From Escherichia phage vB_EcoM_CQ615, in the sequence record PQ010280.1: 39,709 nt of DNA; one strand, given 5' to 3'. Position 1 is the first letter of the stretch. Each line of letters opens with the position of its first letter. The notes beneath the pieces were generated by a model. It ran no database searches, had not been told where the DNA came from, and saw nothing but the letters and a program-made list of their open reading frames with translations. Of the stretch, positions 1,932 through 39,013 are shown in pieces. A program made the position numbers and the translations under genes.

Positions 1932-2386
1932 ATGCTTAATTGCTCCAAAACGTGTATAGCATGTGGTGAGATGAAACCACTGAATATGTACTCGAAAAAT
2001 GCAGCATCGCGAGATGGTCACATCGGTACGTGTAAGAAATGCAAGGCAAAGCAACAAAGGGAACGAAGAGCCAAGGCAAAGGCTTCTGGTGCGCCAACTG
2101 AGAAGGCAATCAAGGATGCCAAGCGTAGACGAAACAATCACCTGAAAATTAGTTACGGTATCGACGAATCAGTGTACAAAAAGATGTACGAAGAACAACA
2201 CGGCGTCTGCGCCATATGTAAACAACCTGAAAGCATTGAGGGTAGGCGACTATGTGTTGACCATTCGCACATGACAGGAGACGTAAGGGTCTTCTGTGCT
2301 CAAACTGCAACAGAGGAATAGGCCTTCTTAAAGACTCACCTGAACTATTACGCAACGCTTTCTATTATTTAACTGGTAAACTCTAA
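1932..2386 (+). pseudogene. Endonuclease VII-family HNH (homing-type) endonuclease, interrupted by a -1 frameshift
   Basis: ATG 1932; CxxC pairs and core motif CAICKQPESIEGRRLCVDHSHMTGDVR in frame, frame lost at the GGG run 2287-2289 (in-frame stop at 2321); the +1 frame continues [32 protein letters not shown] to TAA 2384-2386, completing the HNH/Zn-finger signature. Confidence 0.7.
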
Positions 2387-6852: not shown

Positions 6853-7878
6853 ATGATGAACATTAAGACCAACCCATTCAAAGCCGTGTCTTTCATAGAG
6901 TCTGCCATTAAGAAAGCTCTGGATAACGCTGGGTATCTTATTGCTGACATTAAGTACGATGGTGTGCGTGGTAACATCTGCGTAGACAATACCGCTAACT
7001 GCTGCTGGCTCTCTCGTGTATCCAAACCGATTCCGGCACTGTCTTACCTTAATGGGTTCGACGCACGTTGGCAGCGTCTACTAAAGGATGACCGTTGCTT
7101 CTACCCTGATGGCTTCATGCTGGATTGCGAACTTATGGTCAAGGGAGTGGACTTCAACACTGGCTCCGGCCTTCTGCGGACCAAGTGGCTCAACAAGAAG
7201 AACATGCAGTTCGATATTGGAGGTCCGTATGAATCGTGGGACGTGAGCCTGAAGGGACTTCCTTTCGGTATTGACCCGAACTTACTAACAGTTAAACTCT
7301 ACGCTATCCTTCCGTACCACATTGTGGAATCTGGGGAAGACTGTGATGTCATGACGTTGCTCATGCAGGAACACGTTAAGAACATGCTGCCTCTGCTACA
7401 GGAATACTTTCCTGAAATCGAATGGCAAGCGGCTGAGTCTTACGAGGTTTACGACATGGTAGAACTACAGCAACTGTACGAGAAGAAGCGTGAAGAAGGG
7501 CATGAGGGTCTCATTGTGAAAGACCCGATGTGCATCTACAAGCGCGGTAAGAAGTCCGGCTGGTGGAAACTTAAGCCTCTTGAGGAAGCTGACGGTATCA
7601 TTCAAGGTGTAAACTGGGGAACCGAAGGGCTTGCTAACGAAGGTAAGGTAATTGGATTCAAGGTGCTTCTTGAGACTGGTCGTCTTGTGGATGCCAATAA
7701 CATCTCTCGCGCCTTAATGGATGAATTTACAGCTAACGTTAAAGAACATGGCGAGGACTATTATAATGGCTGGGCTTGCCAGATTGGATTTATGGAGGAA
7801 ACACCAGATGGCTCATTGCGTCACCCGTCCTTCACCTGCTTCCGAGGAACTGAGGACAATCCGAAAGAGAAAGTATAA
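6853..7878 (+). CDS. 1.3: ATP-dependent DNA ligase (gp1.3)
   Basis: 341 aa, MMNIKTNPFKAVSF..., adenylation motif KYDGVRG; T7 ligase-like but shorter (T7: 359 aa) with divergent internal patches. Confidence 0.93.
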   Translation: MMNIKTNPFKAVSFIESAIKKALDNAGYLIADIKYDGVRGNICVDNTANCCWLSRVSKPIPALSYLNGFDARWQRLLKDDRCFYPDGFMLDCELMVKGVDFNTGSGLLRTKWLNKKNMQFDIGGPYESWDVSLKGLPFGIDPNLLTVKLYAILPYHIVESGEDCDVMTLLMQEHVKNMLPLLQEYFPEIEWQAAESYEVYDMVELQQLYEKKREEGHEGLIVKDPMCIYKRGKKSGWWKLKPLEEADGIIQGVNWGTEGLANEGKVIGFKVLLETGRLVDANNISRALMDEFTANVKEHGEDYYNGWACQIGFMEETPDGSLRHPSFTCFRGTEDNPKEKV

Positions 7879-8278
7879 GTATAACCCTGCGGCTCCTTCG
7901 GGAGTCATTTCTGCCTCTGGTAAACCCATAGGGTACAAGCGGAAAGATGGGTATTGGGTTCTTTCTTATGGAGGAAAGCAGTTACTTGCACACAGGGTGG
8001 TCTGGATGCTTAACTTCGGTGCAATACCCGATGGAATGGTGATAGACCACATTAACAGAAACCCTAGCGACAACCGCATAGAGAATCTTCGAGTAGTAAC
8101 TCAATCAGCTAACCTAAGGAATGTAGGCGTCCGGTCTCACTGTAGGAGTGGAGAGAAGTTTATCTCCCTTGATGTGAGAACCGGACGTTTTTCCGTTCGT
8201 ATCAGGAGAAAATCCTATGGAACATATGGTACTCTCGAAGAGGCTATAGCTGTGCGCGATGCTAATACGACTCACTAA
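7808..8278 (+). CDS. HNH endonuclease with AP2-like DNA-binding tail (homing-endonuclease-like); start uncertain
   Basis: Open frame to TAA 8276-8278; HNH core GYWVLSYGGKQLLAHRVVWMLNFGAIPDGMVIDHINRNPSDNRIENLRVVTQSANLRN, then SVRIRRKSYGTYGTLEEAIAVRDAN; the only in-frame ATG before the HNH core with an SD (GGAGGA 7794-7799) is 7808, inside the ligase 3' end; no ATG/GTG/TTG lies between the ligase stop and the core. Confidence 0.55.
   Translation: MAHCVTRPSPASEELRTIRKRKYKYNPAAPSGVISASGKPIGYKRKDGYWVLSYGGKQLLAHRVVWMLNFGAIPDGMVIDHINRNPSDNRIENLRVVTQSANLRNVGVRSHCRSGEKFISLDVRTGRFSVRIRRKSYGTYGTLEEAIAVRDANTTH
7888..7912 (+). terminator. Weak hairpin after the ligase gene (possible early terminator TE analogue)
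   Basis: ggctcc-ttcg-ggagtc: 6-bp stem with one G-U pair and a UUCG tetraloop, followed by auuucu; position matches where T7 places TE. Confidence 0.3.
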
Positions 8279-8407: not shown

Positions 8408-8668
8408 ATGTTTCGACTTCATTACAACAAAAGCATTAAGAATTTCACGGTTCGCCGTGCTGACCGTTCAATCGTATGTGCGAGCGAGCGCCGAGCTAAG
8501 TTACCTCTTATTGGTAACACAGTTCCTTTGGCACCGAGCGTCCACATCATTATCACCCGTGGTGACTTTGAGAAAGCAGTAGATAAGAAACGTCCGGTTC
8601 TTAGCGTGGCAGTGACCCGCTTCCCGTTCGTCCGTCTGTTACTCAAACGTATCAAGGAGGTGTTCTAA
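8408..8668 (+). CDS. 1.6: gp1.6-like protein
   Basis: 86 aa, [23 protein letters not shown]...; SD aaaggagac upstream. Confidence 0.8.
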
Positions 8669-8995
8669 TGACTATTAACCATAAAGAATATTGTCGCTCC
8701 GTACTTAGCTTTGGGTCGTGCGATTGTGGTGCCACTACGAACCACGTGTCCAACAAACAACAAGACGTAGACGGTGTTCGTACTCCGAGCCATTACATGC
8801 TGTTTGACGACATTGAGGCTATTGAAGTGATTGCCCGTTCGATGACCAGTGAGCAGTTCAAAGGGTACTGCTTCGGGAACGTACTTAAATATCGCCTACG
8901 TGCTGGTAAGAAATCCGAACTGGCTTACTTAGAGAAGGACATGGCGAAAGCTGAGTTCTACGGTGAACTGTACGAGAAACATAAGGATAAGTGCT

Positions 8996-9009
<14 letters not shown>
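8668..9009 (+). CDS. 1.7: gp1.7-like protein (nucleotide kinase family in T7), short form
   Basis: 113 aa; C-terminal about 70 aa (TPSHYMLFDDIEAIEVIARSMT...KYRLRAGKKSELAYLEKD...KHKDKCY) match the T7 gp1.7 C-terminus; N-terminal 45 aa differ; T7 gp1.7 is 196 aa. Confidence 0.75.
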
Positions 9010-9329
<320 letters not shown>

Positions 9330-9332
<3 letters not shown>

Positions 9333-9352
9333 TACGACTCACTATTGGGGGA
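9330..9352 (+). promoter_or_regulatory. Phage RNAP promoter phi2.5
   Basis: taatacgactcactattggggga; variant initiating region. Confidence 0.75.
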
Positions 9353-9398
9353 AGACTCCCTCTGAGAAACTAAACGAAACCTAAAGGAGATTAACATT

Positions 9399-10097
9399 AT
9401 GGCTAAGAAGATTTTCACCTCTGCGCTGGGTACTGCTGAACCTTACGCTTACATCTCTAAGCCGGACTACGGCAACGAAGAGCGTGGCTTTGGGAACCCT
9501 CGCGGTGTCTACAAAGTTGACCTGACTATTCCCAACAAAGACCCGCGCTGCCAACGTATGGTCGATGAAATCGTGAAGTGCCACGAAGAGGCTTATGCTG
9601 CTGCCGTTGAGGAATACGAAGCGAACCCGCCTTCTGTAGCTCGTGGTAAGAAACCACTGAAACCGTATGAAGGCGACATGCCGTTCTTCGATAACGGTGA
9701 CGGTACGACTACCTTTAAGTTCAAATGCTACGCGTCTTTCCAAGACAAGAAGACCAAAGAGACCAAGCACATTAATCTGGTTGTGGTTGACTCCAAAGGT
9801 AAGAAGATGGAAGACGTTCCGATTATCGGTGGTGGCTCTAAACTGAAAGTAAAATACTCGCTGGTTCCGTACAAGTGGAACACCGCTGTAGGCGCGAGCG
9901 TTAAGCTACAACTGGAATCCGTAATGCTGGTCGAACTGGCTACCTTTGGTGGCGGTGAAGATGATTGGGCTGACGAAGTTGAAGAGAACGGCTATGTTGC
10001 CTCTGGTTCTGCCAAAGCGAGCAAACCACGCGACGAAGAAAGCTGGGACGAAGACGACGAAGAGTCCGAGGAAGTAGACGAAGACGGAGACTTCTAA
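9399..10097 (+). CDS. 2.5: Single-stranded DNA-binding protein (gp2.5)
   Basis: 232 aa, MAKKIFTSALGTAEPYAYISKPDYG..., acidic C-terminal tail ending DEDGDF. Confidence 0.95.
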   Translation: MAKKIFTSALGTAEPYAYISKPDYGNEERGFGNPRGVYKVDLTIPNKDPRCQRMVDEIVKCHEEAYAAAVEEYEANPPSVARGKKPLKPYEGDMPFFDNGDGTTTFKFKCYASFQDKKTKETKHINLVVVDSKGKKMEDVPIIGGGSKLKVKYSLVPYKWNTAVGASVKLQLESVMLVELATFGGGEDDWADEVEENGYVASGSAKASKPRDEESWDEDDEESEEVDEDGDF

Positions 10098-10553
10098 GTG
10101 GCTGGCGCATACGCTGCGCGTGGTATCAGAAAGGTCGGGACATTCCGTTCCGGCCTAGAAGATAAGGTCTCTAAGCAGCTAGAGGGTAAGGGTATTAAGT
10201 TCGATTATGAACTGTGGAAAATCCCTTACGTTGTCCCTGCGAGCAACCATGTGTATACTCCAGACTTCCTGCTGCCTAACGGAATCTTTATTGAAACCAA
10301 AGGTTTATGGGAGAGTGACGACCGAAAGAAACACTTATTGATTCGCGAACAGTTTCCTGAACTGGACATCCGTCTGGTGTTCTCAAGCTCACGCACCAAG
10401 CTATACAAAGGGTCTCCGACCAGTTACGGCGAATGGTGTGAGAAGCACGGTATTCTGTTTGCTGACAAATTAATTCCTGTAGAATGGCTCAAAGAACCCA
10501 AAAAGGAGGTGCCATTTGACAAGCTGAAACAATCGAAGGGAGGAAAGAAATAA
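10098..10553 (+). CDS. 3: Endonuclease I, Holliday-junction resolvase (gp3)
   Basis: 151 aa, GTG start right after the 2.5 stop; ...YTPDFLLPNGIFIETKGLWESDDRKKHLLIREQFPELDIRLVF... Confidence 0.93.
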   Translation: MAGAYAARGIRKVGTFRSGLEDKVSKQLEGKGIKFDYELWKIPYVVPASNHVYTPDFLLPNGIFIETKGLWESDDRKKHLLIREQFPELDIRLVFSSSRTKLYKGSPTSYGEWCEKHGILFADKLIPVEWLKEPKKEVPFDKLKQSKGGKK

Positions 10554-11008
10554 TGGCTCGTGTACAGTTTAAACAACGTGAATCCACTGACGCAATCTTT
10601 GTTCACTGCTCGGCTACCAAGCCAAGCCAGAATGTAGGTGTCCGTGAGATTCGTCAGTGGCATAAAGAGCAAGGTTGGCTTGATGTCGGGTATCACTTTA
10701 TCATCAAGCGTGATGGTACTGTAGATGAAGGCCGAGATGAGATGGCTGTAGGTTCTCACGCTAAGGGTTACAACCACAACTCTATTGGTGTCTGCCTTGT
10801 AGGTGGTATCGACGATAAAGGCAAGTTCGACGCTAACTTTACGCCAGCCCAAATGCAATCCCTTCGCTCACTGCTTGTCACACTGCTGGCTAAGTATGAA
10901 GGCGCTGTACTGAAAGCCCATCACGATGTCGCACCCAAGGCTTGCCCTTCGTTCGACCTTAAGCGTTGGTGGGAGAAGAACGAACTGGTCACTTCTGACC
11001 GTGGATAA
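10553..11008 (+). CDS. 3.5: Lysozyme / N-acetylmuramoyl-L-alanine amidase and RNAP inhibitor (gp3.5)
   Basis: 151 aa, MARVQFKQRESTDAIFVHCSATKPSQNVGVREIRQWHKEQGWLDVGYHFIIKRDG...; near-identical to T7 lysozyme. Confidence 0.95.
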   Translation: MARVQFKQRESTDAIFVHCSATKPSQNVGVREIRQWHKEQGWLDVGYHFIIKRDGTVDEGRDEMAVGSHAKGYNHNSIGVCLVGGIDDKGKFDANFTPAQMQSLRSLLVTLLAKYEGAVLKAHHDVAPKACPSFDLKRWWEKNELVTSDRG

Positions 11009-11009
11009 T

Positions 11010-11032
11010 TAATTGAACTCACTAAAGGGAGA
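11010..11032 (+). promoter_or_regulatory. Phage RNAP promoter phi3.8-like
   Basis: taattgaactcactaaagggaga, followed by ccacaacggtttccc leader. Confidence 0.75.
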
Positions 11033-11064
11033 CCACAACGGTTTCCCTTTGTTCGCGTTGTTGA

Positions 11065-12838
<1,774 letters not shown>

Positions 12839-16001: not shown

Positions 16002-16232
16002 ATGGCTACTTGGAAATATAGGATAGTAGAACTTGAAACCACAGAGGGTACTGTCCTGTATTCGCCACAGTTCAGGCACAAGTGGTTCCCGTTCTGGAGT
16101 CACTTTTGCAGCTATGTAGACGAGCGACGACTTGTGTTTGCCGACATCGAAGATGCTAAACGGTTTCTTAGCGAAACACGCGCTAACGATGAACCAGAAG
16201 TTAAGAAAGTAAGAAAAATCCATTCACTCTAA
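16002..16232 (+). CDS. Hypothetical 76-aa protein in the slot T7 uses for gene 5.3
   Basis: ATG 16002 with SD ataggagagatag; MATWKYRIVELETTEGTVLYSPQFRHKWFPFWSHFCSYVDERRLVFADIEDAKRFLSETRANDEPEVKKVRKIHSL; no HNH motif; no family recognised. Confidence 0.6.
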   Translation: MATWKYRIVELETTEGTVLYSPQFRHKWFPFWSHFCSYVDERRLVFADIEDAKRFLSETRANDEPEVKKVRKIHSL

Positions 16233-16245
16233 AGGAGAAATTATT

Positions 16246-16545
16246 ATGGCTATGACCAAGAAATTTAAAGTGTCCTTCGACGTTACCGCTAAGATGACAT
16301 CTGACGTTCAGGCAATCTTAGAGAAAGATATTCTGCACCTGTGTAAGCAGGTTGGCTCCGGCGCTATTGTTCCTAACGGTAAGCAGAAAGAGATGATTGT
16401 CCAGTTCCTGACGCATGGTATGGAAGGACTGATGACCTTCGTTGTTCGAACAGCTTTCCGTGAGGCTATCAAAGATATGCACGAAGAGTATTCCGATAAG
16501 GACTCCTTCAAGCTATCTCCTGCTACTGTACGGGAGGTGTTCTAA
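16246..16545 (+). CDS. 5.5: gp5.5 (H-NS-binding protein in T7)
   Basis: 99 aa, MAMTKKFKVSFDVTAKMTSDVQAILEKDILHLCKQVG... Confidence 0.9.
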   Translation: MAMTKKFKVSFDVTAKMTSDVQAILEKDILHLCKQVGSGAIVPNGKQKEMIVQFLTHGMEGLMTFVVRTAFREAIKDMHEEYSDKDSFKLSPATVREVF

Positions 16546-16754
16546 TGTCCGACTATCTGAAAGTGCTGCAAGCAATCAAGAGTTGCCCTAAGACTTTCCA
16601 GTCAAACTATGTGCGTAACAATGCGAGCCTCGTAGCGGAGGCCGCTTCCCGTGGTCACATCTCATGTCTGACTACAAGCGGACGCAATGGTGGTGCTTGG
16701 GAAATCACTGCTTCTGGTACTCGCTTTCTGAAACGAATGGGAGGGTGTGTCTGA
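16545..16754 (+). CDS. 5.7: gp5.7-like protein
   Basis: 69 aa, MSDYLKVLQAIKSCPKTFQSNYVRNNASLVAEAASRGHISCLTTSGRNGGAWEITASGTRFLKRMGGCV. Confidence 0.8.
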   Translation: MSDYLKVLQAIKSCPKTFQSNYVRNNASLVAEAASRGHISCLTTSGRNGGAWEITASGTRFLKRMGGCV

Positions 16755-16912
16755 TGGTACGTGACACTGTAACAATTCCTCGTGATGCGTGGAACGATAT
16801 GCAGGGTTATATTGATTCTCTGGAACGTGAGAACGATAGCCTTAAGAACCAACTTATGGAAGCTGACGAGTACGTGGCTGAACTAGAGGAGAAACTTAAT
16901 GGCACTTCTTGA
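16754..16912 (+). CDS. 5.9: gp5.9, RecBCD inhibitor
   Basis: 52 aa from the internal ATG overlapping the 5.7 stop; MVRDTVTIPRDAWNDMQGYIDSLERENDSLKNQLMEADEYVAELEEKLNGTS (acidic). Confidence 0.85.
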   Translation: MVRDTVTIPRDAWNDMQGYIDSLERENDSLKNQLMEADEYVAELEEKLNGTS

Positions 16913-19232: not shown

Positions 19233-19246
19233 TCAGGAGGTGACAC

Positions 19247-20857
19247 ATGGCTGAGAAGCGTACAGGTCTAGCCGAGGAAGGTGCAAAGTCGGTCTATGAG
19301 CGATTAAAGAACGACCGCGCTCCTTATGAGACTCGTGCTCAAAACTGCGCTCAGTACACCATTCCGTCCCTCTTCCCTAAGGACTCCGACAACGCATCTA
19401 CAGACTACACAACTCCGTGGCAAGCTGTGGGTGCTCGCGGTCTCAATAACTTGGCCTCTAAGCTCATGCTGGCTCTCTTCCCGATGCAAACGTGGATGAA
19501 ACTAACCATCTCTGAGTTCGAGGCCAAACAGTTACTGAACGACCCCGATGGACTCGCTAAGGTTGATGAGGGCCTATCAATGGTAGAGCGTATCATCATG
19601 AACTACATTGAGTCTAACAGCTACCGAGTGACTCTCTTTGAGGCTCTCAAGCAGTTAGTCGTTGCTGGCAACGTCCTGCTGTACCTACCGGAACCAGAAG
19701 GGTCGAACTACAATCCCATGAAGCTGTACCGATTGTCTTCTTATGTGGTCCAACGAGACGCATTCGGCAACGTTCTGCAAATGGTGACTCGTGACCAGAT
19801 AGCTTTTGGTGCTCTCCCTGAGGACATCCGTAAGGCTGTAGAAGGTCAAGGTGGTGAGAAGAAAGCCGATGAGACCGTCGACGTGTACACTCACATCTAT
19901 CTGGATGAGGACTCAGGTGAATACCTCCGGTACGAAGAGGTCGAGGGTATGGAAGTTCAAGGCTCCGATGGGTCTTACCCTAAAGAGGCTTGCCCATACA
20001 TCCCGATTCGAATGGTTAGGCTTGACGGTGAATCCTATGGTCGTTCGTACATTGAGGAATACTTAGGTGACTTACGGTCCCTTGAGAATCTCCAAGAGGC
20101 TATCGTCAAGATGTCCATGATTAGCTCTAAGGTTATCGGCTTAGTGAATCCTGCTGGTATCACCCAGCCACGCCGACTGACCAAAGCTCAGACTGGTGAC
20201 TTCGTTACTGGTCGTCCAGAAGACATCTCGTTCCTCCAACTGGAGAAGCAAGCAGACTTTACTGTAGCTAAAGCCGTAAGTGACGCTATCGAGGCTCGCC
20301 TTTCGTTTGCCTTTATGTTGAACTCTGCTGTTCAGCGCACTGGTGAGCGTGTGACCGCCGAAGAGATTCGGTATGTCGCTTCTGAACTTGAAGATACTTT
20401 AGGCGGTGTCTACTCCATCCTTTCTCAAGAATTACAATTGCCTCTGGTACGAGTGCTCTTGAAGCAACTACAAGCCACGCAACAGATTCCTGAGTTACCT
20501 AAGGAAGCCGTAGAGCCAACCATTAGTACAGGTCTGGAAGCAATTGGTCGAGGACAAGACCTTGATAAGCTGGAACGCTGTGTCACTGCGTGGGCTGCTC
20601 TAGCTCCTATGCGCGATGACCCTGACATCAACCTTGCAATGATTAAGTTGCGCATTGCGAACGCTATCGGTATTGACACTTCTGGTATCCTTCTTACAGA
20701 AGAACAGAAGCAACAGAAGATGGCCCAACAGTCTATGCAAATGGGTATGGATAATGGTGCCGCTGCGCTGGCTCAAGGTATGGCTGCACAGGCTACAGCT
20801 TCACCTGAGGCTATGGCTGCTGCTGCTGATTCCGTAGGTCTACAGCCGGGCATTTAA
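19247..20857 (+). CDS. 8: Portal (head-tail connector) protein (gp8)
   Basis: 536 aa, MAEKRTGLAEEGAKSVYERLKNDRAPYETRAQNCAQYTIPSLFP... Confidence 0.97.
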   Translation: MAEKRTGLAEEGAKSVYERLKNDRAPYETRAQNCAQYTIPSLFPKDSDNASTDYTTPWQAVGARGLNNLASKLMLALFPMQTWMKLTISEFEAKQLLNDPDGLAKVDEGLSMVERIIMNYIESNSYRVTLFEALKQLVVAGNVLLYLPEPEGSNYNPMKLYRLSSYVVQRDAFGNVLQMVTRDQIAFGALPEDIRKAVEGQGGEKKADETVDVYTHIYLDEDSGEYLRYEEVEGMEVQGSDGSYPKEACPYIPIRMVRLDGESYGRSYIEEYLGDLRSLENLQEAIVKMSMISSKVIGLVNPAGITQPRRLTKAQTGDFVTGRPEDISFLQLEKQADFTVAKAVSDAIEARLSFAFMLNSAVQRTGERVTAEEIRYVASELEDTLGGVYSILSQELQLPLVRVLLKQLQATQQIPELPKEAVEPTISTGLEAIGRGQDLDKLERCVTAWAALAPMRDDPDINLAMIKLRIANAIGIDTSGILLTEEQKQQKMAQQSMQMGMDNGAAALAQGMAAQATASPEAMAAAADSVGLQPGI

Positions 20858-33638: not shown

Positions 33639-35300
33639 ATGGCTAACGTAATTAAGACCGTTTTGACTTACCAGTTAGATGGCTCCACTCGTGATTTTAA
33701 TATCCCGTTTGAGTATCTAGCCCGTAAGTTCGTAGTGGTGACTCTTATTGGTGTAGACCGTAAGGTCCTCACGATTAATACAGACTATCGCTTTGCTACA
33801 CGTACTACCATCTCTCTGACCAAGGCTTGGGGTCCAGCCGATGGCTACACGACCATCGAGTTGCGTCGAGTAACCTCCACGACCGACCGATTGGTTGACT
33901 TTACGGACGGCTCAATCCTCCGTGCGTATGACCTTAACGTCGCTCAGATTCAAACGATGCACGTAGCGGAAGAGGCCCGTGACCTGACTGCTGATACCAT
34001 CGGTGTCAATAATGATGGTCACTTGGATGCCCGTGGTCGTCGAATTGTGAACCTTGCTAACGCCGTGGATGACCGTGATGCTGTTCCGCTGGGGCAACTC
34101 AAGACCATGAACCAGAACTCGTGGCAGGCGCGTAATGAGGCCCTACAGTTCCGTAATGAGGCTGAGACTTTCAGAAATCAAGCGGAGGGCTTTAAGAACG
34201 AGTCTAGCACTAACGCTACGAACACTAATCAGTGGCGTAATGAGGCTAAGGGGTTCCGTGATGAAGCAGAGCAGTTCAAGAATACGGCTGGTCAATATGC
34301 TACATCTGCTGGGAACTCTGCTACTGCCGCACATCAATCTGAGGTGAACGCTGCTAACTCCGCAACTGCTTCCGCTAACTCTGCTACTCTGGCAGAACAG
34401 CAAGCAGACCGCGCCGAGCGTGAGGCTGATAAACTTGGTAACTGGAATGGACTTGCTGGTGCTGTAGATAGTGTTCAGGGTGATAGTGTATTCTGGAAAG
34501 GAAGCGGCTATTGGGTCGGAGGTCCCGTATACCAACTACAAACGAACCACGCGTTTAGGTTCCGTATGGGTCTTTGGGAAGAAGGCGACTTCCTTAAGTC
34601 TGACTTCGCTATGGACAGACCGGACGGCATAGGGTTCATAGAGTATGCAGCGGACAAGACTGGGCAACATTGTCACCAGATTCGACTTAATCAGTTAACA
34701 ATAGCTGGCGGTGTGTTAGAGTCAGATGCTGATGATCGCATAGCTCACGCTTTCGCTGACCAGTACAACACTAAAGCTCCTTTCTTCCAACAGATTCGTG
34801 CACAATCTACAAGCTCATATCACCCAATAATAAAGCAACGAACTTACCAATCTGGACGGTGGGCAGGATGCTGGTCTATCGGTACATTGCTGACTGGAAC
34901 GAGTCCGTCATTCCACATACATATGAAAGACGAAGGGATAGATGGGAAACTTTGGACGTTCAATACCAATGGAGACTTCCGCGCCCCTGGGGAGATTTGG
35001 GCCGATGGTGGACGTGTGGTTGTACAGAATGGCTCTTTTAACCCTGCTGGTAGAGTGTGGGGTACTGCGTATGATTCCGGATACCTTGACGACTGGGTTC
35101 GAAGACATTTCATAGGGGATGTATACCTAGGTCCTCATGTGTGGCAACAACAAACTGGAGGTTATCAGGACATTATAGCACCATCTGGGCATGTGCAAAC
35201 AGGTACAACCGCTAGTAATGGAGCCGTTGCGGGTATCTTTGTAAGACCGGTATGGCTTGGTTTCCATAACGGCACAAAAAGAATCATTGCGTCGCAGTAA
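33639..35300 (+). CDS. 17: Tail fiber protein (gp17) with a non-T7 distal (receptor-binding) half
   Basis: 553 aa; N-terminal about 270 aa (MANVIKTVLTYQLDGSTRDFNIPFEYLARKFVVVTLIG...; repeat region FRNEAETFRNQAEGFKNE) match T7 gp17; from about residue 272 (nt 34455) the sequence diverges (GSGYWVGGPVYQLQ...GIFVRPVWLGFHNGTKRIIASQ). Confidence 0.93.
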   Translation: MANVIKTVLTYQLDGSTRDFNIPFEYLARKFVVVTLIGVDRKVLTINTDYRFATRTTISLTKAWGPADGYTTIELRRVTSTTDRLVDFTDGSILRAYDLNVAQIQTMHVAEEARDLTADTIGVNNDGHLDARGRRIVNLANAVDDRDAVPLGQLKTMNQNSWQARNEALQFRNEAETFRNQAEGFKNESSTNATNTNQWRNEAKGFRDEAEQFKNTAGQYATSAGNSATAAHQSEVNAANSATASANSATLAEQQADRAEREADKLGNWNGLAGAVDSVQGDSVFWKGSGYWVGGPVYQLQTNHAFRFRMGLWEEGDFLKSDFAMDRPDGIGFIEYAADKTGQHCHQIRLNQLTIAGGVLESDADDRIAHAFADQYNTKAPFFQQIRAQSTSSYHPIIKQRTYQSGRWAGCWSIGTLLTGTSPSFHIHMKDEGIDGKLWTFNTNGDFRAPGEIWADGGRVVVQNGSFNPAGRVWGTAYDSGYLDDWVRRHFIGDVYLGPHVWQQQTGGYQDIIAPSGHVQTGTTASNGAVAGIFVRPVWLGFHNGTKRIIASQ

Positions 35301-35309
35301 GGAGGAACA

Positions 35310-35687
35310 ATGCGAGTATTTACTAACTGGAAGTGGACCGAAGGGTCTTACTTTGGAAAACCCATCTATGAGATTCGCGACAACAGTAACGTTGATTGGT
35401 ACACCTTAATGGATGAACTAGATGAGCGCCAAGAAACATGGGTGGTAGGTATTGGGCCTAGAGGAGACGTTATGTGGTTCACTGATGGACCCGTGTCTGG
35501 ACTGTACGTGCCTGTAGATGGAGGGACCGTTGTAGTAACTGATTCTTTCGAGTTCTCTGACAACTGGCGAGGGTGTACATGGGACGGTAAGAAATTCCAC
35601 GCACCAGAAGAAGCCCAGAAGCGAACTAAGGAGGACATTGAGCAGGACTTACTGAAACTCATGGCTGAGTTGAAGGGTCTAGAATAA
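35310..35687 (+). CDS. Hypothetical 125-aa protein between tail fiber and holin; candidate fiber-associated factor
   Basis: ATG 35310 with strong SD (taaggagg) overlapping the gene 17 stop; MRVFTNWKWTEGSYFGKPIYEIRDNSNVDWY...DNWRGCTWDGKKFHAPEEAQKRTKEDIEQDLLKLMAELKGLE; no gene sits here in canonical T7. Confidence 0.65.
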   Translation: MRVFTNWKWTEGSYFGKPIYEIRDNSNVDWYTLMDELDERQETWVVGIGPRGDVMWFTDGPVSGLYVPVDGGTVVVTDSFEFSDNWRGCTWDGKKFHAPEEAQKRTKEDIEQDLLKLMAELKGLE

Positions 35688-35708
35688 TTATAACAAGGAA
35701 AGGCGTGT

Positions 35709-38569: not shown

Positions 38570-39013
38570 ATGATAAGCAAGAAGAAGTATGTTGTCGATA
38601 AGGAGACTGGTTGCTGGAACTTTAAGGGATGTAAGACTAAGACTGGTTATGGTCGTATTCGCGTGAATGGAGTCCATTGGATGGCCCACAGGTATTCCCT
38701 GAGTTGTCATCTAGGCAGACCGATAGCTGACGAAATGGTTGTGATGCACATGTGTGATAACCCCTCATGTGTTAACCCTGAGCACCTTAAGGAAGGGACT
38801 CAGAAGGAAAACATAGAGGACTGCATATCAAAAGGTCGCGCAACTAAGGCCACAGGTAAACGCGATGCGTCGAAGAGAGACCCTAGCGAGGAACGTAAGG
38901 CTATAGTTATTCGTAGATACCATAAAGGCTGGACCGCAACGTCCATAGCGAGATACCATAAGCTCTCTGTGGCGTGGGTCAAGAGGGTCATTGAGGATTA
39001 CCTAAGTGATTGA
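38570..39013 (+). CDS. HNH endonuclease with C-terminal helix-turn-helix, directly downstream of the terminase
   Basis: ATG 38570 with SD aaggagg; 147 aa; GCWNFKGCKTKTGYGRIRVNGVHWMAHRYS...MHMCDNPSCVNPEHLKEGTQKENIEDC (classic HNH), then basic linker and HTH-like RRYHKGWTATSIARYHKLSVAWVKRVI. Confidence 0.8.
   Translation: MISKKKYVVDKETGCWNFKGCKTKTGYGRIRVNGVHWMAHRYSLSCHLGRPIADEMVVMHMCDNPSCVNPEHLKEGTQKENIEDCISKGRATKATGKRDASKRDPSEERKAIVIRRYHKGWTATSIARYHKLSVAWVKRVIEDYLSD

Follow-up and report, generated by a model that had tools for sequence, protein, structure and literature searches.

The DNA analysed here (the window, meaning the whole stretch of 39,709 bp) carries the homing-endonuclease-free allele of the junction between genes 2.5 and 3, of the type seen in phages 13a, phiA1122 and N30. 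Lack of gene 2.8 at this junction is usual in the genus and also in T3; T7 with a few sporadic carriers is the exception. Taken together, the observations described below are very probably to be read as follows: the window is a complete Teseptimavirus genome with a cassette-free junction, the T7 lineage gained the gene 2.8 cassette together with its downstream flank, and the window never had it. The junction feature is ordinary and previously annotated, and its discovery value is small; only the take-over of a resident start codon by the cassette and the abrupt change of identity at the cassette of T7 are mildly interesting extras.

The window is a complete genome of the T7 group (Teseptimavirus), with a backbone 88–95% identical to those of T7 and its relatives. 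Blastn blocks shared with T7 (NC_001604) are collinear, at 79–97% identity over nearly the whole 39.7 kb, and the collinear T7 gene order and high genome-wide nucleotide identity place the window in this genus. It contains 11 T7-type promoters, and its closest database relatives are 92–95% identical to it. The alignment with T7 is broken at gene 2.8 (T7 9860 to 10278, window 10101 to 10122), gene 3.8 (T7 11213 to 11586, window 11060 to 11095), gene 5.3 (T7 16485 to 16834, window 16004 to 16229) and gene 7.7 (T7 19843 to 20240, window 19241 to 19247); genes 2.8, 3.8 and 7.7 are absent, and unrelated DNA is found in place of gene 5.3. In tblastn searches of the window, no homologues of T7 gp1.4 and gp5.3 were found, and no close homologue of gp3.8, the sole match of which (37% over half of the query) lies inside a 1.45-like HNH gene. 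T7 gp2.8 (NP_041971), which profile searches identify as an HNH_3/His-Me finger protein, matched the window only at 38606–38851, in a different slot and at 39% identity.

At the junction itself, window positions 10090–10105 read TTCTAA/GTGGCTGGCG (here and below, the slash marks the boundary). The gene 2.5 product ends in an acidic tail (...DEDGDF) followed by TAA at 10095–10097, and the GTG start codon of gene 3 at 10098–10100 abuts this stop with a spacer of 0 nt. Since there is no intergenic base between the two genes, there is no room for another gene, and an HNH_3 or His-Me finger ORF of about 139 aa, as T7 has between genes 2.5 and 3, was not found there in any frame. The absence of gene 2.8 is a deterministic comparative observation, to which a chance statistic is inapplicable. 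Both claims that the initial annotation had made about this site were borne out: gene 3 starts with GTG directly after the gene 2.5 stop, leaving out gene 2.8, and T7 does have gene 2.8 here, its map placing gene 2.5 at 9158–9856, gene 2.8 at 9857–10276 (420 nt) and gene 3 at 10257–10706.

Gene 3 does start with GTG, and this start deserves annotation. Residues 1–149 of gp3 align to positions 1–148 of the 149 positions of the Pfam Phage_endo_I profile (PF05367; E=6.7e-82, 272.9 bits against a cut-off of 29.1), a full-length match that assigns the protein to the phage endonuclease I family of T7 gp3. The translated ORF at 10098–10553 has no internal Met. The GGAG motif, which sits 8 nt upstream of the GTG within the final codons of gene 2.5, would probably serve for translation of gene 3, either coupled or re-initiating. 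GTG starts are often mis-called, and the initial annotation was made without comparison; the arrangement could in principle reflect an assembly deletion, or a gene 3 start elsewhere with a short hidden gene in between. However, neither a hidden ORF nor an alternative start was found at the junction, where the profile aligns from residue 1, an in-frame downstream Met is lacking and not a single intergenic base remains, the curated 13a record annotates the identical start, and 70 independent database records are contiguous at this point. Such an artefact is therefore extremely improbable.

The anatomy of the occupied site in T7 could be read directly against the empty one. T7 has GACGGAGACTTCTAA/GTGGAACTGCGG... 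and the window has GACGGAGACTTCTAA/GTGGCTGGCGCA..., so that the shared GGAG and GTG form the start of gene 2.8 in T7 and of gene 3 in the window. Six relatives, namely 13a, N30, 04922B, C5, CICC 80001 and phiA1122, share GACGGAGACTTCTAA/GTG, and in these, too, it serves gene 3; all six are annotated with a 456-nt gene 3 starting with GTG at the base after the gene 2.5 stop. At its 3′ end, the T7 cassette reads ...AAAGGGAGGCGAC/ATGGCAGGTTACGGCGCTAAAGG and provides gene 3 with an ATG and a strong GGGAGG site; the 2.8 frame stops at a TAA within gene 3 codons 6–7. The cassette extends in T7 over about 9861–10256, roughly 400 nt, plus the replaced 5′ end of gene 3. The T7 cassette and its copies in other phages thus occupy the exact spot that is uninterrupted in the window and use the same GGAG and the same start-codon position; gene 3 begins with GTG and the N-terminus AGAYAARG in the window, whereas it begins with GGGAGG, ATG and MAGYGAKG in the carriers. 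A cassette-type gene 3 start, consisting of GGGAGG, ATG and the 5′ end ATGGCAGGTTACGGCGCTAAAGG, is not present in the window, which reads GTGGCTGGCGCATACGCTGCGCGTGG. The cassette would have been inserted exactly at the point between genes 2.5 and 3, after which the resident GGAG and GTG would start gene 2.8 and the incoming GGGAGG and ATG would replace them for gene 3. If this is true, an essential neighbour loses its resident start codon to the cassette and is given another in return.

A junction query of 300 nt (window 9948–10247) was compared with the phage collection. It matched 193 phage records, 70 of them unbroken across the junction, although some 100 T7 laboratory derivatives swell these counts, which are not population frequencies. 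The unbroken matches include 04922B (99.0%), N30 (98.7%), phiA1122, 13a and NC-A, and isolates from Yersinia, Salmonella, Shigella and Serratia are also among the junction-spanning records. The remaining records, about 120, match query positions 1–154 only, that is, from window position 9948 up to 10101, and those breaking at 10101 among the 60 listed are T7 laboratory lines and AH67C600_Q5. In T3, the junction is an equivalent TAATG overlap. Because the same TAA/GTG junction is found in the relatives and 70 records are contiguous across it, the absence of gene 2.8 is the usual state and T7 is exceptional. Gene 3 directly behind gene 2.5 is already known from curated records, including 13a, phiA1122, T3 and many newer isolates. 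The nearest precedent is 13a (NC_011045), which has the junction GACGGAGACTTCTAA/GTGGCTGGCGCATA... and a 151-aa gp3 at 100% protein identity to that of the window; the corresponding values are 98% for phiA1122 and 86% for T7.

The DNA flanking the junction differs from T7 on one side only up to the next gene. In 100-nt windows, identity to T7 is 93–99% in gene 2.5, 72–78% throughout gene 3 (10108–10557) and 86–96% in gene 3.5, where T7 identity recovers. Six cassette-free relatives are 93–100% identical to the window throughout, gene 3 included. The window accordingly combines a gene 3 start right after the gene 2.5 stop, with no intervening ORF, and a 151-aa gp3 that begins with (V)AGAYAARG and whose gene is at least 93% identical at the nucleotide level to those of cassette-free relatives. 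Since T7 gene 3 is only 72–78% identical to that of the window while gene 2.5 is 93–99% identical, the cassette appears to have brought its own gene 3 allele along; as the identity profile suggests, it may in the T7 lineage have arrived with, or protected, a whole diverged allele. On a smaller scale, the cassette probably carries along the first codons of gene 3, if not more. The string ATGGCAGGTTACGGCGCTAAAGG at the gene 3 start is common to all seven carriers, and gene 3 of the carrier FE44 differs from that of cassette-free Berlin by two synonymous changes in the first 15 nt and matches it from there on; it is because of this nucleotide string and the FE44/Berlin comparison only that co-transfer of the first 15–23 nt or so is proposed. 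The N-terminus MAGYGAKG of gp3 was also considered as a protein-level marker of the cassette and was rejected, since it also occurs in Berlin, K11 and KP32, which are cassette-free. When K11, KP32, Berlin, FE44 and PMBT12 were considered as donors of the T7 allele, none was nearer to it in gene 3 than the window-type allele is.

These alleles also bear on the direction of the change. An ancestor could have carried gene 2.8 and lost it secondarily, by a precise deletion that joined gene 3 to the start codon of 2.8. Loss of homing-endonuclease genes is common, and T7 without 2.8 is viable; moreover, Berlin has a 19-nt spacer (..GGGAGGTCAC/ATG) before gene 3 that resembles the cassette 3′ end and could be a deletion remnant, so loss may have occurred in some lineages. 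For the window, however, a deletion in a T7-like ancestor would leave a T7-type gene 3 with ATG and MAGYGAKG, while its gene 3 is 72–78% identical to that of T7 along the full length and 93–100% identical to those of cassette-free phages, and the scar-free junction is common to T3 and seven cassette-free Teseptimavirus genomes. Secondary loss is thus improbable here, and gain in T7 rather than loss elsewhere is preferred on the grounds of parsimony and the absence of a scar. Considering that T7 gene 3 is diverged over its whole length and that the cassette is sporadic in three genera, the T7 lineage most likely gained the cassette together with downstream flanking DNA, and the phage of the window, like most of its relatives, would never have carried it.

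A close relative of gp2.8 (E<=1e-40) was found in only 129 of 50,697 records, more than 100 of which are T7 derivatives. The non-T7 carriers examined were AH67C600_Q5 and KKE5P (Teseptimavirus), FE44 and RN5i1 (Berlinvirus), and PMBT12 and Kp_Pokalde_002 (Przondovirus). All seven carriers examined, T7 included, have a 420-nt ORF between genes 2.5 and 3 that overlaps gene 3 by 20 nt and begins at the resident start-codon position, although Kp_Pokalde_002 is annotated with a later start; in FE44 the ORF is annotated as a ‘putative homing endonuclease’. Klebsiella phage 066028 has a more distant gp2.8 homologue (49%) between other genes. The sporadic occurrence across three genera and the fixed insertion geometry are therefore the expected signature of a free-standing homing-endonuclease gene, and T7 gene 2.8 is best described as a putative free-standing HNH homing-endonuclease cassette. 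A full-text literature search for gp2.8 or gene 2.8 matched only a preprint on the GAPS4 defence and gave no report of gp2.8 cleavage or homing.

Marker exclusion in T-even phages is an exchange boundary of the kind associated with homing endonucleases. The exchange boundaries beside phage homing endonucleases (Barth et al. 2023, PMC10448857) resemble the present case in that a nuclease gene lies at a sharp change of identity; they differ from it in that the window is the nuclease-free partner and that gp2.8 cleavage and gene conversion are putative. A gp2.8-type enzyme may cut at sites such as the uninterrupted sequence at about 10090–10125. We tentatively suggest, at slightly below even confidence, that gp2.8-family nucleases have an intact homing site, open to cleavage, at about 10085–10125, and that co-infection with T7 would replace the gene 3 allele of the window by the block of 2.8 and gene 3; the suggestion is made because of the family, distribution and flanking divergence of gp2.8. 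If it is true, the junction of genes 2.5 and 3 would be a defined genetic-exchange boundary across three Studiervirinae genera. The phage of the window and T7 form a clean natural pair of empty and occupied sites for testing gp2.8 homing.

The activity of gp2.8 has some added interest, since T7 homing endonucleases have been reported to blunt GAPS4. T7 genes 2.8, 7.7 and 3.8, treated as homing endonucleases, were deleted jointly and the mutant was viable (bioRxiv 10.1101/2025.09.07.674715); it was outcompeted by the wild type only on GAPS4 hosts, and catalytically dead gp3.8 still blunted GAPS4 (same preprint). The three genes are therefore dispensable and may bring a benefit. On this basis, gp2.8-type nucleases could be kept as counter-defence, and their absence from the window could reflect host defence systems instead of chance spread; elsewhere, the window also retains nuclease genes, two of HNH_3 type and one of the endonuclease VII family. 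Nevertheless, the GAPS4 result comes from the joint deletion of 2.8, 3.8 and 7.7 and not from that of 2.8 alone, and no sequence feature links the nuclease set of the window to a particular host defence. We regard this functional explanation as unlikely, though less so than secondary loss; a counter-defence role would in any case be compatible with a mobile cassette, with no conflict between the two.

Patchy spread of HNH genes is well known among T7-like phages, and the other slots of the window fit this pattern (Table 1). The initial annotation had listed the 3.8, 5.3 and 7.7 slots as empty and had counted three HNH genes at other sites. The 3.8 slot indeed holds only a promoter and leader ahead of the gene 4A ATG at 11080, and the 7.7 slot is reduced to 14 nt. 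The 5.3 slot lacks a T7 5.3 homologue but is filled by a gp5.1-like ORF, which is 87% identical to an unannotated ORF of NC-A and 53% identical to gp5.1 of Cronobacter phage Dev2, where it adjoins the DNA polymerase gene. Two of the three supposed HNH genes belong to HNH_3, but the third, between genes 0.6 and 0.7, is of the Endonuclease_7 family. Comparison with T7 and relatives by blastn and tblastn upheld the broader view that a conserved T7 backbone here bears another set of accessory and homing-endonuclease genes; the nuclease set does differ, but the missing gene 2.8 is no peculiarity of this genome, because its relatives share it. An alignment with gene tabulation, as the initial annotation had proposed, found 2.8 and 5.3 in T7 only among the eight whole genomes compared, and N30 and CICC 80001, like the window, to be without all four of 2.8, 3.8, 5.3 and 7.7. 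T7 is thus a poor default gene map for annotating its relatives.

Table 1. Features of the window at the junction of genes 2.5 and 3 and at other accessory slots
Feature	Position	Strand	Basis
Endonuclease VII-family gene in the interval of genes 0.6/0.7, not in T7	1932..2321	+	PF02945 E=1.3e-11; phrog_2633
HNH_3 gene of 1.45 type, in the 1.4 slot	7808..8278	+	PF13392 E=1.6e-20
Gene 2.5, single-stranded DNA-binding protein, 232 aa	9399..10097	+	ORF list and translation
GGAG, ribosome-binding site for gene 3 (putative Shine–Dalgarno function)	10086..10089	+	Sequence reading
Gene 3, endonuclease I, Holliday-junction resolvase, 151 aa	10098..10553	+	PF05367
Site of the T7 gene 2.8 cassette, uninterrupted here	10101..10102	.	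blastn breakpoints and record matches
Gene 3.5, amidase/lysozyme	10553..11008	+	ORF list; T7 identity recovers here
Empty 3.8 slot, phi3.8-type promoter AATTAATTGAACTCACTAAAGGGAGA and leader only	11009..11079	+	blastn against T7; sequence reading
76-aa gp5.1-like ORF in the T7 5.3 slot, not a nuclease	16002..16232	+	AGGAGA Shine–Dalgarno and ATG; phrog_18049 E=6.9e-27
Empty 7.7 slot, 14 nt with Shine–Dalgarno, from gene 7.3 stop to gene 8 ATG	19233..19246	+	blastn against T7
125-aa ORF after the tail-fibre gene, absent from T7, not a nuclease	35310..35687	+	phrog_136 E=3.4e-5
HNH_3 and HTH gene of 19.4 type, after gene 19	38570..39013	+	PF13392 and PF13384; phrog_6254 E=2.9e-59

All the extra genes have homologues in related phages, and the three that were checked (the 1.45-like, 19.4-like and gp5.1-like genes) are at matching positions. 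The endonuclease VII-family gene is 84% identical to its counterparts in Yersinia phages WX1 and WX2 and about 77% identical to those of several Klebsiella phages. The 1.45-like HNH gene overlaps the 3′ end of the ligase gene and has its stop inside the phi1.5 promoter; its start at 7808 was chosen from a GGAGGA 9 nt upstream, the longest ORF beginning at 7721. It is 95% identical to its counterpart in JeanTinguely, 92% in Bas102 and 82% to gene 1.45 of phiYeO3-12, all of which lie at the end of the ligase gene. The 19.4-like HNH gene encodes a protein of the same family as T7 gp2.8 and gp7.7 (39–44% identity) at a different site. The ORF after the tail-fibre gene has a weak similarity to tail-fibre assembly proteins and no Pfam match; ORFs at the same position are 97% identical in N30 and 38–47% identical in 04922B, C5 and CICC 80001. 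The empty 3.8 and 7.7 slots, the refilled 5.3 slot and the 1.45-like, 19.4-like and endonuclease VII genes would thus represent the usual shuffling of selfish nucleases on a T7 backbone.

The accessory complement of the window is shared only in part with the phages that share its junction. Like the window, 13a is without genes 2.8 and 5.3 and has an HNH gene, 19.4, after gene 19 (69% identical to 38570–39013). Unlike in the window, its 3.8 slot holds a gene, gene 7.7 is present and gene 5 has an intron carrying an HNH; on the other hand, 13a has neither the 1.45-like HNH gene nor the endonuclease VII gene, and gene 0.7 is mostly missing. N30 (NC_048078) and CICC 80001 (NC_027387) have the 19.4-like HNH gene at 96%, and N30 also resembles the window in the ORF after the tail-fibre gene. 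In contrast, both are without the 1.45-like HNH gene, the endonuclease VII gene and the gp5.1-like ORF, an additional HNH lies between genes 4 and 4.3 of N30, and the overall DNA identity of the two to the window is only 92–95%.

Behind the 3.8 slot, at 11058–11307, T7, 13a, phiA1122 and 04922B, all of which have a 3.8-slot gene, are 44–70% identical to the window, and N30, C5 and CICC 80001 are 93–100% identical to it. This drop in identity is similar to the one at the 2.8 site.

At the 3.8 slot, where T7 carries an accessory gene, the first ~200 nt of the downstream primase gene (4A) fall in a stretch of low identity, with the 5′ end of gene 4A (window 11058-11307) showing only 44-70% identity to T7, 13a, phiA1122 and 04922B, the relatives that hold a gene in this slot. 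N30, C5 and CICC 80001, which have no 3.8-slot gene, are 93-100% identical to the window over the same stretch (mostly 97-100%). By alignment, a nuclease gene at the 3.8 slot is linked to a diverged downstream flank, the same pattern as at the 2.8 site between genes 2.5 and 3. At the latter junction, the spacer of the cassette-free Yersinia phage Berlin is similar to the final ~20 nt (…GATATACGAAATGGGAGGACAC) of the gp2.8 homing-endonuclease cassette in its relative FE44, and it may be what a cassette left behind when it was lost, or else the ancestral setting in which the cassette arose.

Accessory and variable features of the window, and the spacer in phage Berlin
Feature	Position	Strand	Remarks
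1.45-like HNH gene	7721-8278 (probable start 7808)	+	Longest ORF from 7721
Gene 1.7, short	8668-9009	+	113 aa, DUF3310 only
76-aa ORF	16002-16232	+	Good ribosome-binding site; occupies T7 gene 5.3 slot
Tail-fibre gene	33639-35300		C-terminal ~270 codons without alignment to T7
125-aa ORF 3′ of tail-fibre gene	35310-35687		Weak tail-fibre-assembly similarity
19-nt spacer TATATGATAGGGAGGTCAC	L016 629-647		Yersinia phage Berlin, gene 2.5 to gene 3, cassette-free

The 3′-terminal 71 nt of the ligase gene are shared, in a different frame, with the 1.45-like HNH gene, whose stop codon lies within the phi1.5 promoter (TAATACGACTCACTAAAGGAGG). Its real start looks to be ATG 7808 rather than the start of the longest ORF, because GGAGGA is located 9 nt upstream of this codon. 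A hairpin inside the reading frame (GGCTCC-TTCG-GGAGTC, ~7891-7906), which the HNH gene reads through, resembles the early terminator. Gene 1.7 is shorter than its T7 counterpart (196 aa), and 8658-8807 aligned poorly to all seven relatives compared. The product of the ORF in the 5.3 slot matched phrog_18049, and is 87% identical to an unannotated ORF of phage NC-A and 53% to gp5.1 of Cronobacter phage Dev2. A ~50% homolog carries the label 'putative homing endonuclease' in two database records; no nuclease domain was found in the 76-aa product, and the label is unsupported by the sequence.

The genome combines known Teseptimavirus modules in a mosaic, its left half being best matched by 04922B and C5 and its right half by N30. 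When each half was used as a query against the phage collection, no record exceeded ~95% identity. The usual species threshold is 95%, and the phage may lie at or under it. The region 34503-35690, comprising the unaligned C-terminal part of the fibre and then the 125-aa ORF (97% to its N30 counterpart), looks like an exchanged receptor-binding tip with a possible chaperone.
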